Assembly: GCA_050008715.1 (NCBI GenBank)
Contig: JBEKMC010000012.1
Coordinates: 5,834-69,833, forward strand
Direction of reading: 5' to 3'
Length of the DNA stretch: 64,000 nt
Source: Acidimicrobiales bacterium
Lineage (GTDB): Bacteria; Actinomycetota; Acidimicrobiia; Acidimicrobiales; Bog-793
Numbering within the stretch: the first letter of the stretch is position 1; every line of letters begins with the position of its first letter. Shown here one piece after another: positions 40,459 to 64,000 of the stretch. The translations under genes and the position numbers were made by a program. The notes below the pieces were generated by a model. It saw only the letters and a list, made by a program, of their open reading frames with translations, was not told where the DNA came from and made no database searches.

Positions 40459-41240
40459 GACGCTGCCTCCTCGACGGTCGAGCCGACCTCCCGGAAGCCC
40501 GGCGCGCCGGCGTTGAACGTGTGGAACACCCGCCCGATGTCGCCGTCGGAGACCGGTACCGTCCGCAGGAGCTGGACGAACGCCGTCGTGTTGATGGTGT
40601 CCGCCGGCCCGTAACAGCCGAAGCAGCCGCGGTCGAAGGCCGGGCAGATCGCGCCGCAGCCGGCGTGGGTGACGGGGCCGAGGCACGGCGTGCCGTGTGC
40701 CACCATCACGCAGGTCGTGCCGCGTCGCTTGCACTCGACGCAGACCGAGCCCGACTGCAGCCGCGGCGGCTTGCCGAGCAGGTACGACGAGATCACATGC
40801 AGCAGCTGCGACTTGTTGATCGGGCAACCCCGGAGCTCGAAGTCGACAGCCACGTGCTCGGACATCGGCGTCGAGGTTGCCAGCGTCTCGATGTACTCCG
40901 GCTGGGCGTACACGATGGAGGTGTAGGCCTTCACGTCGGCGAAGTTCCGCAACGCCTGCACACCGCCGGCCGTGGCGCACGCGCCGATCGAGATGAGGAT
41001 CGTCGACTGCGCACGGATGTCGACAATGCGGTCGATGTCGTGGGCGGTCGTGATCGACCCCTCCACGATGGACAGGTCGTACGGGCCGTCCACCGAGGTG
41101 CTCGACGCCTCGAGGAAGTAGGCGAAGTCGACCGCCCCCGCCACCGCCAAGAGCTCGTCCTCACAGTCGAGCAACGTCAGCTGGCATCCGTCGCAGGAGG
41201 CGAACTTCCAGACGGCGACTTTGGGAAGGCTCTGCGTCAC
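40455..41240 (-). CDS. hyhS: [NiFe]-hydrogenase small (delta) subunit, group 3b-like
   Basis: GTG 41240 (GTGA overlap). 'FASCDGCQ', 'GACATAGG', 'RGCPI', and distal Cys clusters '[11 protein letters not shown]...[15 protein letters not shown]...GCFGC'. No Tat signal. Confidence 0.85.
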
Positions 41241-61421: not shown

Positions 61422-62432
61422 GTGACGCCTGCCGAGACACGAACCGTGCTCCAGTCCGCCGCCGCGGCGCTCCTCGACGAGCGCCGGCGACTCCGAGCGG
61501 ACGAGCTGGCGGAGCTGGCGGAGGTGCCGGACCAGGCCGTCCCGAGCCTCGCGGCGCTCGCCCACGAGGTGCGACTCGGGTGGTGTGGGGACGGTGTGGA
61601 GGTCGAGGGCATCCTGTCGGCCAAGACCGGCGGCTGCCCCGAGGACTGCCAGTTCTGCGCCCAATCGTCCCGCTTCGACACGCCGGTGCAGGCGACGCCT
61701 TTCCTCGACACCGAGGAGGTGCTCCAGGCCGCGCGGGAGACGGCACGTTTCGGCGCCACGGAGTTCTGCATCGTGCTCGCGGTCCGTGGACCGGACGAGC
61801 GCACCCTGCGACGCATCCTCGAGCTCGTGCCGCTCGTACGCGCCGAGACGGGCCTCCAGGTGGCGATATCGGCCGGCATCCTCGACGAATCGCAGGCCGA
61901 GCGCCTGGCGTCCGGCGGTGTCCATCGCTACAACCACAACCTCGAGACGGCTCGCAGCTTCTTCCCCTCCATCGTCACGACCCACACCTGGGAGGAACGT
62001 TGGGAGACGTGCCGGCGCGTGCAGCACGCTGGCATGGAGCTGTGCTGCGGCGTGCTGCTCGGCATGGGCGAGACGGTGGCTCAGCGACTCGAGCTGCTCG
62101 GCCAGCTAGCCGATCTGGAGCCGTGCGAGGTGCCGATGAATTTCCTCGATCCTCGACCGGGGACGCCGCTCGCGATCCGAAAGCTCGTGAGCCCGCTCGA
62201 GGCGATCCGATGGATCGCCCTGTTCCGCCTCGGCCTACCGGCCGTGATCCTGCGATACGCCGGCGGCCGGGAGGTCACGCTGAGGGAGCTGCAGGCAATG
62301 GGCATGACGTCGGGCATCAACGCTCTCATCGTCGGGAACTACCTGACGACACTCGGGCGGTCGCCCACCGCCGACCTCGCCATGCTCGCCGACCTCAAGA
62401 TGCCGGTCTCGGCGCTTTCGGCCGCCCTGTGA
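61422..62432 (+). CDS. bioB: Biotin synthase
   Basis: GTG start. Radical-SAM motif 'CPEDCQFC', 'YNHNLET', 'CCGVLLGMGE'. Confidence 0.95.
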   Translation: MTPAETRTVLQSAAAALLDERRRLRADELAELAEVPDQAVPSLAALAHEVRLGWCGDGVEVEGILSAKTGGCPEDCQFCAQSSRFDTPVQATPFLDTEEVLQAARETARFGATEFCIVLAVRGPDERTLRRILELVPLVRAETGLQVAISAGILDESQAERLASGGVHRYNHNLETARSFFPSIVTTHTWEERWETCRRVQHAGMELCCGVLLGMGETVAQRLELLGQLADLEPCEVPMNFLDPRPGTPLAIRKLVSPLEAIRWIALFRLGLPAVILRYAGGREVTLRELQAMGMTSGINALIVGNYLTTLGRSPTADLAMLADLKMPVSALSAAL

Positions 62433-62650
62433 GCCGGCGACCCTGTGAGCCGGCGGCCCATTGCACCGGTTGCGGGCGGCCGTCGGCCGAGTGCCCGACC
62501 GGAGGTGGCTGCACGACGCCGTTCGAGCCGCCTCGTCACTGCCCCGAGTGCGGCCGCCGCCTCGCAGTGAGAGTGGCACCCACGACCTGGGTGGCACGAT
62601 GTCGCCAACACGGTGAGCTCCCGGTGGGGAGCACCGGACCGGCCCGCTGA
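62429..62650 (+). CDS. bsaP: Biotin synthase auxiliary protein (BsaP-like small Cys-rich protein)
   Basis: GTGA overlap with the bioB stop. 73 aa. 'CTGCG...PPRHCPECGRRLAVRVAPTTWVARCRQHG' resembles the small protein encoded after mycobacterial bioB as I recall it. Confidence 0.65.
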   Translation: MSRRPCEPAAHCTGCGRPSAECPTGGGCTTPFEPPRHCPECGRRLAVRVAPTTWVARCRQHGELPVGSTGPAR

Positions 62651-62728
62651 GCCGGCGCCCGACACCACGGCCCGAGGGCCGGAGCCCCGAGCGGACGCCC
62701 GAACCCGACGATCGAGAGGAGCACCGAA

Positions 62729-63412
62729 GTGGAGCTGTCAGAAGTCATGCGAACCACGGCGGCCTGCCGGGAGTTCACCTCCGAGCCCGTTGCCCCCGAG
62801 ACGCTGCAGCGAGTCCTCGACACGGCGCGCTTCGCCCCGAGTGGCGGCAACCGCCAGCCCTGGCGGGTCGTGCGCATCGAGAGCCCGTCCATCCGCCAGG
62901 AGATCGCCCACCTCTACTCGCTCAGCTGGCGGGAGTATTGGGCACACGTGGAGCGTGGGCTCGTCCCCTTCGCTCCCGGCGACGACGGGCGCTGGGACGG
63001 GCCGGCCGTCGATCTCGAAGTCGCCCGGGAGCGACCGGCGCCGGACGCCTTCGGTGACCAGCTGGCGTCGCTACCGGTCATGCTCGTCCTCCTCGCCCAT
63101 CTCGGGTCGCTGGCCGTGACGGACAACGGGCTCGGGCGCCAGAGCATCGTCGGTGGCGCCTCCGTCTACCCCTTCGGGCACAACGTCCTGCTCGCCGCCC
63201 GCGCCGAGGGCCTCGGCGGCGTAATGACCACGGTGCTGTGCCGGCAGGAAGAGGCGGTGAAGGAGCTCCTCGGCGTGCCCACGGCCTTCGCCGTCGCAGC
63301 CCTCATCGTTCTCGGACATCCCGTCAGACAGGTGACACGACTGCGCCGGTGGCCCGTCGAGCGCTTCACGTTCGTGGACCGTTTCGACGAGCCAGCCCTC
63401 GGGGATGCCTGA
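62729..63412 (+). CDS. Nitroreductase-family (FMN) protein
   Basis: GTG start. 'RFAPSGGNRQPW' and 'GGASVYPFGHNVLLAARAEGLGG'. Confidence 0.85.
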   Translation: MELSEVMRTTAACREFTSEPVAPETLQRVLDTARFAPSGGNRQPWRVVRIESPSIRQEIAHLYSLSWREYWAHVERGLVPFAPGDDGRWDGPAVDLEVARERPAPDAFGDQLASLPVMLVLLAHLGSLAVTDNGLGRQSIVGGASVYPFGHNVLLAARAEGLGGVMTTVLCRQEEAVKELLGVPTAFAVAALIVLGHPVRQVTRLRRWPVERFTFVDRFDEPALGDA

Positions 63413-63468
63413 CGCGAGAGGCTCGGGTGTGGACGAACCTGGGGACGAGAGGTGGAAAGTGAACTTTT

Positions 63469-63510
63469 CCTGTCGACAACCCTCGGATTGCTGTCGATAA
63501 CCTCCGAATT
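63469..63510 (+). repeat. 21-bp direct repeat x2 (CCTGTCGACAACCCTCGGATT / GCTGTCGATAACCTCCGAATT)
   Basis: 16/21 identical and exactly adjacent (two helical turns), 14 nt upstream of the -35 hexamer. Confidence 0.7.
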
Positions 63511-63523
63511 AGCCCAAGTCCGG

Positions 63524-63552
63524 TTGACGCCGATGGGGTTCTGCAGCAGAGT
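63524..63552 (+). promoter_or_regulatory. Putative promoter TTGACG-N17-CAGAGT
   Basis: Hexamers and spacer read directly. The -10 keeps the A2/T6 of the actinobacterial TANNNT. The predicted TSS is ~63559. Confidence 0.4.
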
Positions 63553-63589
63553 GTGCCTCGCCAAGGACGGAGACGCCGAAGCGCCGGAA

Positions 63590-64000
63590 CGAAGGTAGAC
63601 CGCAAGGAACACCCGAAGGCCGGGGCTTGGCGCAGAGGGGAGAGCAACCCGCAAGGGGGGTTCGAACGGAAGCGCCGCTCCAAAGTGAAGGTCGCCCGCA
63701 AGGGAGGACCGGATCCGAGGGGCACGGTCCGGAGGAACGGTCACCCGCAAGGGAGGCAGTTCCGAAGGAACGGGAACCGGACGGAGCGCCACCCGCAAGG
63801 GAGGTGCGACTGAAGGAACCGGCTCGTGCTCGAAGGTCGCCCGTAAGGGAGGCCGGAGGGAGGAGCCACGGCTATCCGCCGAGGAAACGGTGACATGGGC
63901 GACCACACCGGGGAGCTGACCTTTCGGGGTCGGAGCACCGGGCGGGCCGGTCGGGCAGCCGCAAGGCACCCGCTGAACCGCAGGAAACCCTCGTCATCTG
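63590..64000 (+). ncRNA. Candidate structured ncRNA: array of GNRA-capped purine-rich hairpin modules (truncated by the window end)
   Basis: GNRA loops at 63602, 63651, 63698, 63747, 63795, 63843 (GTAA) and 63961. Consensus GAAGGTCGCCC-GCAA-GGGAGG. The 47-49-nt spacing is not a multiple of 3. No credible ORF. Confidence 0.45.

Follow-up and report, generated by a model that had tools for sequence, protein, structure and literature searches.

The 64,000-nt stretch of Acidimicrobiales DNA analyzed here (the window) ends within a non-coding RNA gene, located on the plus strand, that belongs to no catalogued family and that we rate as a new RNA family. The gene is about 510 nt long (505 to 512 nt) and extends from position ~63559 to the window-equivalent position ~64062 (L001:8889); its start was estimated from the -10 hexamer, to within 3 nt either way, and its end is visible on L001, an identical contig that runs beyond the end of the window. 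At least 17 distinct full-length homologues are present among the matches listed, along with several that are more distant, and they derive from Acidimicrobiales or Actinomycetota MAGs and from peat and soil metagenomes, the SPRUCE sites being the source of several contigs. The RNA has a conserved, covarying fold on one strand, does not code for protein, and is independent of the genes beside it. The family is defined by a 3' core of about 180 nt and a near-invariant terminal hairpin, both of which were overlooked in the preliminary description of this DNA because they lie at or past the window edge; the hairpin modules noted there make up the variable 5' half only. The reading that we favor, though we would not yet call it probable, is that of a stand-alone, trans-acting, highly structured RNA that may serve as a multivalent scaffold or decoy.

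Extent, strand and fold of the RNA

The preliminary description had an array of modules running off the window. The element does continue past position 64000, but not indefinitely: on L001 it stops about 62 nt farther on. Conservation halts directly after ...GGGGCCUUUCCGCGUCC, and the start of a cytochrome P450 gene follows about 155 nt beyond that point. No U-rich terminator was found downstream of the 3' hairpin. The RNA is 23% A and 40% G, with 63% purine and 8% U. The features that we assigned at the locus are as follows.

63428..63459, plus strand: upstream DNA block TGTGGACGA-ACC-TGGGGACGA-GAG-GTGGAAAG, a candidate regulator-binding site
63470..63501, plus strand: two CTGTCGAYAAC boxes, 21 bp apart, assigned from a direct repeat and conservation in homologues
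63524..63552, plus strand: predicted promoter with -35 TTGACG (63524-63529), a 17-nt spacer and -10 CAGAGT (63547-63552), the hexamers being conserved in homologues
63559..64000, plus strand: non-coding RNA body, assigned from the extension on L001, full-length homologues, a covarying consensus structure and strand preference
63565..63569, plus strand: GGACG, 5' strand of predicted helix P1, with its partner CGUCC at window-equivalent positions 64058-64062
63579..63627, plus strand: module 1, tip CC-GCAA-GG, loop 63602-63605, helices 3-5, compensatory changes at 6 pairs
63628..63676, plus strand: module 2, tip CCC-GCAA-GGG, loop 63651-63654, helices 6-7, 7 pairs changed on both sides
63677..63723, plus strand: module 3, loop 63698-63701, helix 8, outer stem GCUCC/GGGGC 84% paired
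63724..63773, plus strand: module 4, loop 63747-63750, helices 9-11, 8 pairs changed on both sides
63774..63819, plus strand: module 5, loop 63795-63798, helix 12, with a sub-threshold likeness to the Transposase-2 RNA hairpin
63820..63867, plus strand: module 6, GUAA loop 63843-63846, helices 13-14
63868..63881, plus strand: junction strand ACGGCUAUCCGCCG, forming a small hairpin or else pairing as the 3' strand of a junction-closing helix
63882..64000, plus strand: positions 1-118 of the 182-position conserved 3' core, assigned with covariance model R1

Folded as a single sequence, the region reaches -253 kcal/mol (z = -4.5), a value that 0 of 100 shuffles equaled. The consensus fold of the homologues has 113 pairs in 22 helices, and compensatory changes on both sides are seen at 39 of these pairs. 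Pairing is kept in 95.5% of alignment cells, compared to 33-51% when the partners are slid, and 0 of 500 shuffles reach any of five structure measures; because the sequences are related, the shuffle controls overstate the significance, and the slid-partner control is the fairer of the two. The alifold energy is -148.7 on the plus strand against -81.8 on the minus strand, and the many G-U pairs and GNRA loops occur on the plus strand only. The earlier claims of a structured plus-strand RNA, with stems that differ in sequence yet stay complementary, are thus borne out in an alignment of homologues. The earlier impression that the region holds no credible open reading frame also stands: open frames are found on both strands of this U-poor sequence and differ between homologues, the variable columns are distributed over the three codon phases as 123/126/119, and most gaps run for 1-2 nt, so that there is no codon periodicity.

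Helix P1 (alignment columns 13-17 with 524-528) is 98.8% paired and almost invariant, and in the predicted fold it probably closes the molecule, joining the 5' end to the 3' tail. It takes the form AGACG/CGUCU in L143, a short relative, and is not kept in L147 and L156. For the junction strand ACGGCUAUCCGCCG, two competing pairings both fit the alignment and covariation favors neither; an alternative closure of the junction (GCCG with CGGC at 63869-63872, and CGGA with UCCG) is 88% paired and likewise compatible, and is not decided by covariation. Since P1 and the junction-closing helices are near-invariant or ambiguous, the global topology is not proven.

In the predicted fold, the core is a three-way junction that carries two tetraloop hairpins and has the near-invariant hairpin on its 3' side. 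Inside the window it includes, at 63916-63933, a hairpin with a tetraloop and, at 63952-63972, the GGGCAGCC-GCAA-GGCACCC hairpin; the terminal hairpin, of about 50 nt, lies just outside the window at about 64005-64051. Covariance model R1, which describes the core, matches the window at 63883-64000 with 96.2 bits, the match being cut off at its 3' end, and it matches all homologues with 73-176 bits, including L143 with 107.5 bits. The tip of the terminal hairpin is non-GNRA in L147 (AUCU) and L156 (UUAG). We considered mimicry of 16S rRNA helix 27, given that GGGAAGUACGG..GCAAG in the terminal hairpin resembles GGGGAGUACGGCCGCAAGG of Escherichia coli (the E. coli sequence was confirmed), and rejected it because L004 and L036 have AGCAUGG for AGUACGG with compensating changes; conservation thus lies in the helix and not in its sequence.

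A cmscan of the whole window against the 4,227 families of Rfam 15 gave nothing at gathering score, in agreement with the earlier view that no known RNA family is represented. Searches of L001 at E values up to 10 gave nothing relevant, and L143 and L130 gave nothing at E values up to 1. The permissive matches were noise and consisted of sX8, microRNA models, and a partial match to Transposase-2 RNA (RF03015). The last of these, with E about 0.5, reached 18.4 bits where the gathering score is 42.7, and it covered only module 5, which resembles the terminal hairpin of that RNA (gcccucc-GCAA-ggagggc) and part of its purine-rich 5' flank; with a score below gathering and a single module involved, membership was rejected, and the loci examined showed no transposase gene. 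Searches of the literature, including 2026 preprints on intergenic RNA discovery, returned no description of this RNA and no family-specific RNA for Acidimicrobiales, an abundant and poorly studied soil and peat lineage.

The hairpin modules and their variation

Tips of the form CCGYAAGG begin at 63600, 63649, 63696, 63745, 63793, 63841, and 63959, with the G of the loop at +2 (63602, etc.). The tip-to-tip spacings across the six modules are 49, 47, 49, 48, and 48 nt, just as the preliminary description had them, and its single GTAA in place of GCAA is the GUAA loop of module 6. The pattern occurs 16 times on the two strands of the 64-kb window, compared to 3.9 expected (0 of 100 shuffles reach 16), and 7 of the 16 matches fall inside 63600-63966. 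A repeat search reported five copies, with start-to-start distances of 96 (two modules), 49, 48, and 48.

Each module is laid out as an outer stem, a purine-rich internal loop, an inner stem, an A/G loop of 1-2 nt, and a CCC-GCAA-GGG tip. For module 6 there is an alternative outer stem, GGCUC/GAGCC, which is 81% paired. Module length is confined to 45-52 nt across homologues, with almost no linker between modules, and the units are only 58-74% identical to each other, yet positionally orthologous across species. The tips are much more conserved than the stems, with the CCG.AAGG positions at 90% or above, and the loop is GCAA in 104 of 127 tips, all chosen by pattern. The tip design, in which three base pairs carry the GCAA loop and stand on a 1x2 or 2x1 A-containing loop, is common to the modules, the GGGCAGCC-GCAA-GGCACCC hairpin, and the terminal hairpin.

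Not every motif singled out earlier is a property of the family. GGGAGG, which had been taken for part of the module core, is not conserved: its A is A in 83, G in 20, C in 16, and U in 8 of the 127 tips, and the string sits base-paired in the 3' strand of the stem, where GGGGGG, GGGAAG, GGGCGG, and GGGTGG are all seen with the partner strand changing too. Pairing of the inter-module hairpin GGACCG/CGGTCC (63706-63730) is weakly maintained in relatives, at 72% of cells, and this hairpin competes with the module stems. The roughly 20 GGA-type motifs are there in the number reported, but that number is about what the A and G content predicts, and GGA is placed in stems and internal loops, where it is partly, not specifically, conserved.

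Lineages differ in the number of modules, from about 1 to 6, and the related contig L130 has at least 15 (a unit of ~1 kb). There is one module fewer in L133 and L135, there are four in L146, and there is about one in L143, in which the RNA is about 270 nt long. Recent tandem duplications of modules are apparent in L021 and L147, and near-identical neighboring modules (0.84-0.85) in L086, L125, and L021. Since copy number varies among distant lineages, gain and loss of units occurs. The genome scan for homologues demanded two module tips; distant homologues were recovered downstream of nitroreductase orthologues. Matches to the tip-pair pattern in genomes were mostly unrelated CRISPR arrays and perfect G/C palindromes in other phyla, and a scan of viral contigs with the 3' hairpin gave no match.

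The gain and loss of whole hairpin modules around a fixed core is an unusual way for an RNA to evolve. Together with its clean boundaries and conserved promoter, it makes this RNA a tractable case for the evolution of multivalency in RNA.

Promoter and upstream DNA

The promoter proposed earlier, TTGACG-N17-CAGAGT, is present at the position listed above, and TTGAC and CAnnnT are found in all homologues, separated by spacers of 17-19 nt that are unrelated in sequence. An E. coli-type promoter scanner did not call the site at 63524-63552, because just three of the six -10 positions of CAGAGT agree with TATAAT. Judged by its sequence, the promoter appears to be of the housekeeping-sigma type and to be the RNA's own.

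About 110 bp of conserved DNA above the promoter probably bind regulators. The block at 63428..63459, in which 9-mers recur with a 12-bp period, has nearly the same form 5' of every homologue, including L004 and L036, which do not have the nitroreductase gene that lies upstream of the RNA elsewhere (apparently so in the case of L004), and it is also kept in the distant L143, L146, L147, and L156; we suggest it as a site of regulator binding. Inverted repeat I1 would pair GGTGTGGACG of this block with CGACCACACC of the 3' domain; this pairing was rejected because the upstream strand is invariant while its partner varies freely in relatives. The 21-bp direct repeat noted earlier occupies 63467-63487 and 63488-63508, with copies that are 76% identical. 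Of the two CTGTCGAYAAC boxes, the promoter-proximal one stands at a fixed distance from the -35 hexamer and is kept in all homologues, and the distal one is kept in some only. A third TGTCGAYAA site, at 41018, is within a coding region and is probably there by chance.

Function and competing explanations

According to the reading that we favor, the TTGACG-N17-CAGAGT promoter would transcribe the RNA below conserved regulator-binding DNA. The GGACG/CGUCC helix would close the molecule, the 5' two-thirds would form a multi-branch junction from which the six ~48-nt modules radiate, and the 3' third would be the conserved core, acting as an ancestral functional or anchoring unit. The module array would then show equivalent, sequence-specific docking sites, each consisting of a GCAA-capped tip and its closing pairs, to a single partner, most likely a protein, and the RNA would be a multivalent scaffold or decoy with a capacity set by the number of modules. 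No gene for an RNA-binding protein is consistently linked to the RNA in the loci examined, where the neighbors are metabolic. If the RNA does titrate a protein, it would be the first such system defined in Acidimicrobiales, as far as is known, and would involve recognition of GCAA-capped hairpins, where known sponge RNAs use GGA or A-rich motifs.

Among the closest known systems are CsrB, CsrC, RsmX/Y/Z, and the CrcZ-type RNAs, which are also stand-alone RNAs with many similar hairpin units that vary in number by lineage, and the logic of many equivalent sites for one partner is likely shared. The closer analogy to CsrB and RsmZ drawn in the preliminary description is not supported, the loops being GCAA and not GGA. 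Unlike CsrB-type RNAs, with their GGA or A-rich loops, the new RNA has ~48-nt three-tier hairpins in a closed junction, has a large conserved non-repeat core attached, and has an actinobacterial host; the Rfam models for CsrB, CsrC, and RsmX/Y/Z do not match even at E values up to 10. RNAIII of Staphylococcus aureus codes for a peptide, and its hairpins, which are not repeats, have C-rich loops for pairing with mRNAs. The new RNA resembles it in a length of ~510 nt, many hairpins, long-range closure of 5' and 3' ends, and the proposed action in trans, and differs in having no C-rich mRNA-pairing loops and no encoded peptide.

A reading that puts the weight on the core is possible but somewhat less well favored. 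An ancient core of ~180-270 nt, shared with L143, would have a specific biochemical or RNP function, and arrays of 48-nt hairpins (4-6, and at least 15 in L130) would have been grafted onto it repeatedly, giving an RNA-only assembly or a new multivalent RNP in Acidimicrobiales. Few bacterial non-coding RNAs exceed ~400 nt and also have a dense structure supported by covariation, and to our knowledge the large bacterial RNAs of solved function are mostly ribozymes or the cores of RNP machines.

GNRA tetraloops are classic elements of RNA-RNA tertiary contacts, and so the modules could serve folding or self-assembly instead of protein binding. We consider it rather unlikely that the molecule is a self-organizing "ornate" RNA, in which some eight GCAA tetraloops and the A-rich internal loops three pairs below them would be tetraloop and receptor elements that lock a star-shaped 5' domain onto the core or join copies into a higher-order assembly of RNA alone, as reported for ROOL and GOLLD. 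The recurrence of one tip design in the modules, the GGGCAGCC-GCAA-GGCACCC hairpin, and the terminal hairpin speaks for this explanation, as do the unusually fixed identity of the tetraloop among the pattern-selected tips, the narrow range of module lengths that a geometric role would demand, and the presence of a large RNA with many covarying stems in one lineage only. OLE, GOLLD, ROOL, and raiA are alike in their ~500-nt size, many covarying stems, several GNRA tetraloops, narrow phylogenetic range, non-coding nature, and conserved neighborhood among housekeeping or metabolic genes. Against it, no receptor motif was identified, the terminal-hairpin tip is non-GNRA in L147 and L156, and a range from about 1 to at least 15 modules is hard to fit to a single fixed three-dimensional assembly. 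There is also no Rfam match to ROOL, GOLLD, OLE, or raiA, the host is a soil or peat member of the Acidimicrobiales, and we know of no variable-number tandemly duplicated modules, of which the new RNA is largely built, in any of the four.

A nitroreductase gene lies directly upstream on the same strand in most loci (proteins 65-100% identical) and is the one consistent neighbor, and the RNA could be a cis-acting UTR, either the 3' UTR of the nitroreductase mRNA or the 5' leader or riboswitch of a downstream operon. The lack of a U-rich terminator past the 3' hairpin agrees with this, and the purine-rich conserved block above the promoter could in principle be RNA. We nevertheless regard a cis role as highly improbable. 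Between the nitroreductase gene and the RNA, the hexamers are conserved around a spacer that varies, which points to a separate promoter, and L036 and apparently L004, which lack the nitroreductase gene, retain both the RNA and the upstream block, so that the linkage may reflect shared ancestry only. The I1 pairing of upstream block and 3' domain is not maintained in relatives. Downstream, the gene is P450, thiolase, or a convergent gene according to lineage; it differs or converges in L014, L146, L154, L144, L147, and L004, and is convergent in L014, L146, and L154, and the RNA is therefore not a leader. With no constant class of downstream gene on the same strand, a riboswitch was rejected. 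Other neighbors seen are BioB/BsaP, YbjQ-like, and LLM oxidoreductase genes, and the convergent gene encodes a DMFA2_C domain.

The idea that the RNA is a functional analogue of 6S or Ms1, an abundant RNA polymerase-binding RNA filling that niche in Acidimicrobiales, strikes us as very unlikely. It draws on the near-consensus -35 and the heavily conserved promoter region, which suggest strong, regulated expression, and on the absence of Acidimicrobiales from the 14 Actinobacteria orders in which Ms1 homologues are listed (PMC9130861). Ms1 and 6S share with the new RNA a several-hundred-nucleotide size and paired 5' and 3' ends, and in the case of Ms1 an actinobacterial host, and all would be promoter-driven, probably abundant, stand-alone RNAs. 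With Streptomyces coelicolor Ms1 the sequence has nothing in common apart from the 8-mer CCAAGGAC near the 5' end, where Ms1 has ACCAAGGAC; such a match is weak evidence, and a literature search on the 8-mer gave nothing informative. Ms1 and 6S each form an extended rod-like hairpin interrupted by a large central bubble that imitates an open promoter (PMC4191392), whereas the new RNA is multi-branched without such a bubble, in the single-sequence fold as in the consensus fold, exceeds them in length by about 200 nt, and contains repeated modules. The hallmark neighbor of Ms1, a HAD-IB hydrolase gene (PMC9130861), was seen beside none of the loci, and there is no Rfam match at E values up to 10. 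Membership in Ms1/6S was rejected on these grounds.

Titration of C/U-rich RNA, for example the 16S anti-Shine-Dalgarno or a 6C-type small RNA, by a purine-rich base-pairing sponge is no more credible than the 6S/Ms1 analogy, even though the composition is extreme and GAAGG and GGA recur in the internal loops of the modules. The GGGAGG string, which the preliminary description had suggested as a Shine-Dalgarno mimic, belongs to the 3' strand of the stem, is paired there, and covaries with its partner strand, its A varying with compensation. GGA is about as frequent as composition predicts, conservation within the modules is highest at the tips and not in the purine strings, and neither 6C RNA nor another Rfam family was found in the window.

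Slightly less likely again is a precursor cut by an endonuclease into ~48-nt hairpin units in the manner of ToxI or pre-crRNA. The strict period, the near absence of linkers, and the large array in L130 would suit it, but no nuclease or toxin gene is linked to the RNA in the loci examined, no conserved candidate cleavage motif is found between modules, and the positional identity of the modules and the long-range helices enclosing them with the core suggest function as a single molecule. A type III toxin-antitoxin system was rejected, the downstream gene being P450, thiolase, or the convergent DMFA2_C-domain gene and not an endoribonuclease toxin. The earlier exclusion of a CRISPR array is upheld by the divergence of the units and by "spacers" that are themselves conserved and paired; genuine arrays do turn up in other phyla with the tip pattern, and they are unrelated.

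The least credible explanation is a DNA-level repeat without RNA function, be it a MIRU-like VNTR, a REP-like element, or an iteron- or centromere-like protein-binding array: tandem ~48-bp units that each contain an inverted repeat and differ in copy number by lineage would fit, but it is on one strand only that compensatory changes and G-U pairs keep RNA pairing intact, the array is tied to a conserved promoter and a non-repetitive conserved core, and the positional orthology of the divergent modules, with the 39 compensated pairs, agrees with the earlier argument against a plain VNTR. The degenerate MIRU-like repeat that had been offered as an alternative is further contradicted by the array being single-copy in the window. 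Hairpins of the form CCCGCAAGGG, which have a superficial likeness to the modules, recur as scattered repeats in Chloroflexota and other phyla, where they are perfect palindromes of G/C runs, unrelated in sequence to the modules.

Extent and upstream elements of the locus

The locus lies downstream of a nitroreductase gene whose stop codon is at 63412. The preliminary description had reported a direct repeat, TTGACG-N17-CAGAGT and recurring GNRA-tipped hairpins here, and all were seen as described when window 62400-64000 was read. The features are as follows.

62429-62647, + strand: BsaP ORF, 73 aa (NCBIfam "biotin synthase auxiliary protein BsaP," 49.4 bits; cut-off, 39)
63428-63459: 9-mer block, TGTGGACGA-N3-TGGGGACGA-N3-GGGGGAAAG, 12-bp period
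63467-63508: two 21-bp repeats with CTGTCGAYAAC, 76% identity between copies
63524-63529 and 63547-63552: TTGACG and CAGAGT, 17-nt spacer
63600, 63649, 63696, 63745, 63793, 63841 and 63959: CCGYAAGG tips, a hairpin series 3′ of the predicted promoter

Counting both strands, the window contains 16 copies of the tip octamer where 3.9 would be expected, a number that no shuffle reached; 7 of the 16 sites are concentrated in the 370 bases of the array.

An identical nitroreductase protein is encoded on three public contigs, and contig L001 (GCA_964591435.1; window coordinate = L001 coordinate + 55173) extends 498 nt beyond the window end. There the element ends in ...GGCCCCGGGAAGUACGGAGGCGCAAGCCCACCGGCUACCCGGGGCCUUUCCGCGUCC, at window-equivalent ~64062, and is followed by ~155 nt of unconserved sequence and then by a gene for a cytochrome P450, preceded by a good ribosome-binding site. 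The array had been described as running off the window; with the element ending at ~64062, the array is neither indefinite nor the coding 5′ end of a repeat protein. The extended region folds at −253 kcal/mol (z = −4.5 versus shuffled sequence).

TTGAC and CAnnnT are conserved in all family members, separated by 17 to 19 nt of unrelated sequence, a pattern that marks a promoter and not a structured RNA; TTGACG/CAGAGT is the predicted promoter of the RNA. The earlier view of the array as promoter-driven is thus upheld in the conservation of the hexamers. The CTGTCGAYAAC box is also conserved, at a fixed distance, and some members have a second copy 21 bp upstream of it. This box and the 9-mer block are retained in loci L004 and L036 despite a different upstream gene and so are part of the RNA locus. 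Direct repeats spaced by roughly one turn of the helix are typical of response-regulator sites. The boxes are candidate regulator-binding sites, and this upstream sequence suggests that the RNA gene may be regulated.

Homologues and a conserved fold

Homologues were recovered by two routes. A genome scan with two module tips as the query returned mostly unrelated matches; among those listed, at least eight Acidimicrobiales/Actinomycetota MAG loci align over a whole ~560-nt query, including the promoter. Further contigs, from peat and soil, came from scanning metagenomes for the 3′ hairpin; the hairpin was not found in a viral contig collection. Removal of duplicates left 17 distinct full-length sequences, a modest number and related to one another, which form alignment A1 (530 columns; mean column identity, 77%). 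For the second route, contigs of nitroreductase orthologues were fetched and the gap 3′ of the gene was inspected, which gave more distant members (L144, L146, L147, L154 and L156) in a 500- to 740-nt gene-free gap; where relatives of the nitroreductase sit among other genes (L149-L153), there is neither gap nor RNA. The member list is a lower bound.

The scan matches also include an unrelated REP-like family, dispersed pairs of perfect palindromes (CTCCCCCCGCAAGGGGGGGAG or CCCTCCCCCGCAAGGGGGGAGGG) present in dozens per genome in some Dehalococcoidia MAGs; its many loci within L005-L122 include L010, L018 and L027 (Dehalococcoidia OZ253471.1), L012, L047 and L077 (Dormibacterota), and L039 (Planctomycetaceae). 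Several other matches (L059, L040, L030 and L009) have the appearance of repeat arrays with regular spacing, probably CRISPR.

RNAalifold on A1 gave 113 pairs in 22 helices, with both-side changes at 39 pairs. Because the sequences are related, sliding the 3′ partners by 1 to 3 columns is a fairer control than shuffling, and against it the covariation signal is still clear: 95.5% of pairs are standard versus 33-51%, and 39 are compensatory versus 9-17. None of 500 shuffles reached any measure of pairing. The RNA strand is +, with an alifold energy of −148.7 versus −81.8 kcal/mol for the − strand; many positions carry G-U in some sequences and G-C or A-U in others, and GNRA loops occur on + only. 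This is very probably a genuine structured RNA gene, with the following parts.

63565-63569 (GGACG), with CGUCC in the 3′ tail: predicted end-closing helix P1
5′ domain: multi-branch, six ~48-nt modules
Junction strand: conserved, between module domain and 3′ core
3′ core: three-way junction and two tetraloop hairpins
64005-64051, window-equivalent (L001:8832-8878): terminal hairpin, ~50 nt, 12 of 19 pairs never varying

P1 and the helices that close the junction hardly vary or have alternative pairings, so the modelled global topology is provisional. P1 reads AGACG/CGUCU in L143, one compensatory example, and is not kept in L147 and L156. In L147 and L156 the tip of the terminal hairpin, which otherwise does not vary, is AUCU or UUAG in place of GCAA.

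A covariance model of the ~48-nt module had been suggested; ours, R1, was built on the 3′ domain and recovered relatives, scoring every member at 73-176 bits; L143, a short relative, reaches 107.5 bits. On the window it scores 96.2 bits, the match being cut off by the window end, and a search of the 64 kb gave no second copy.

A coding region is ruled out by variable A1 columns spread evenly over the codon phases (123/126/119), gap runs mostly of 1 or 2 nt, and longest open frames that differ in strand and frame among homologues. CRISPR and VNTR are likewise ruled out: the units are 58-74% identical to one another, orthologues resemble each other a little more than paralogues do, and the "spacers" are themselves conserved and base-paired. 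The preliminary description had dismissed the same three readings.

Modules and the constant 3′ core

What stays constant across the family is the 3′ core; whole modules have been gained and lost. The modules are 45-52 nt long in nine diverse members. Conservation of the tip CC-G-C-A-A-GG is at least 90% over 127 pattern-selected sites, 104 of them GCAA, figures informative only for the C and A preference at the middle positions since the pattern forced GNRA; the stems vary and co-vary. L133 and L135 have one module fewer, L146 has four and L143 about one. Fresh tandem neighbours, near-identical ~48-nt units, occur in L021:6596-7113 and L147:5815-6290 (two pairs in L147), and neighbouring modules are homogenised in L086 and L125 (0.84).

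The entire contig L130:1-1151 (Ga0265759_100812) consists of at least 15 GNRA-capped units at 48-50-nt spacing, with a core at 287-466 inside the array (R1, 26.9 bits). Positions 57-135 are ~80% identical to 1047-1122, ~990 nt apart, and the terminal hairpin has its 5′ half only before modules resume. L130 may represent either a far longer relative, of ~1 kb, or gene copies in tandem. L143:2320-2600 (− strand) has ~270 nt, with about one module, a complete 3′ core and terminal hairpin, and the promoter type and upstream 9-mer block of the family; this short form is possibly ancestral.

Proposed role and alternatives

What is established is a conserved gene, independent of its neighbours, whose large RNA product folds stably and combines a fixed core with near-equivalent hairpins that vary in number and have sequence-conserved tips. 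The simplest reading, which we favor tentatively, is that the RNA serves as a multivalent scaffold or decoy: a single partner would recognise the tips, capacity would depend on module copy number, and the 3′ core would serve folding, stability or a second interaction. The strongest rival, though unlikely, is an RNA-only architecture in which tertiary or intermolecular contacts are formed through the GCAA loops.

The usual gene order is divergent YbjQ-like pair, nitroreductase, RNA; the window has bioB-bsaP-nitroreductase-RNA, the bsaP GTG start overlapping the bioB stop codon (GTGA). The 3′ neighbours are P450 and F420-dependent LLM oxidoreductase genes in the window's clade, and thiolase and Lgt elsewhere, whereas in L014, L146 and L154 the neighbour is convergent; the RNA occurs without the nitroreductase in L036 and apparently L004. 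Given these varied or convergent genes and nitroreductase-free loci, the RNA is not the leader of any one operon and does not have to accompany the nitroreductase, and a cis-acting UTR is improbable. Its neighbours give no functional hint. In L001, L144, L146, L147 and L156, a divergent YbjQ_1-domain gene pair and a small gene without a recorded domain adjoin the nitroreductase on its upstream side, an arrangement conserved across the family, and a GntR-aminotransferase fusion regulator is close by in several loci. The bioB/bsaP junction has short tandem repeats at 62425-62459 (16-nt unit CCCTGTGAGCCGGCGA, 2.2 copies, inside the start of the BsaP frame) and 62369-62403 (18-nt unit, 1.9 copies).

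Purines make up 63% of the RNA strand and U only 8%, a composition unlike that of the whole window; a purine-rich sponge acting by pairing is rather improbable, as is an analogue of 6S/Ms1 RNA. The proposed CsrB/RsmZ analogy fails, GGA being absent from the loops, and so does the Shine-Dalgarno mimic, GGGAGG being base-paired and variable. A precursor that is processed is quite improbable, and a repeat acting at the DNA level, set against the strand-specific fold, very unlikely.

As the preliminary description had supposed, none of the known families tested accommodates the RNA: Rfam 15 gave no match at gathering score, and the only thematically related hit, one module resembling the Transposase-2 hairpin, stays far below threshold (18 bits; threshold, 42.7). 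Multi-hairpin sequestering RNAs are our best guess at a parallel in presumed action, from which this RNA differs in its recognition element and added core; the likeness to "ornate" large RNAs is one of look. A categorically new RNA class is a real, if less likely, possibility. In the terminal hairpin, the 5′ arm together with the loop (GGGAAGUACGGAGGCGCAAGCC) recalls E. coli 16S rRNA helix 27 (GGGGAGUACGGCCGCAAGG, sequence confirmed), a resemblance that is probably chance because L004 and L036 alter the stretch with compensating substitutions.
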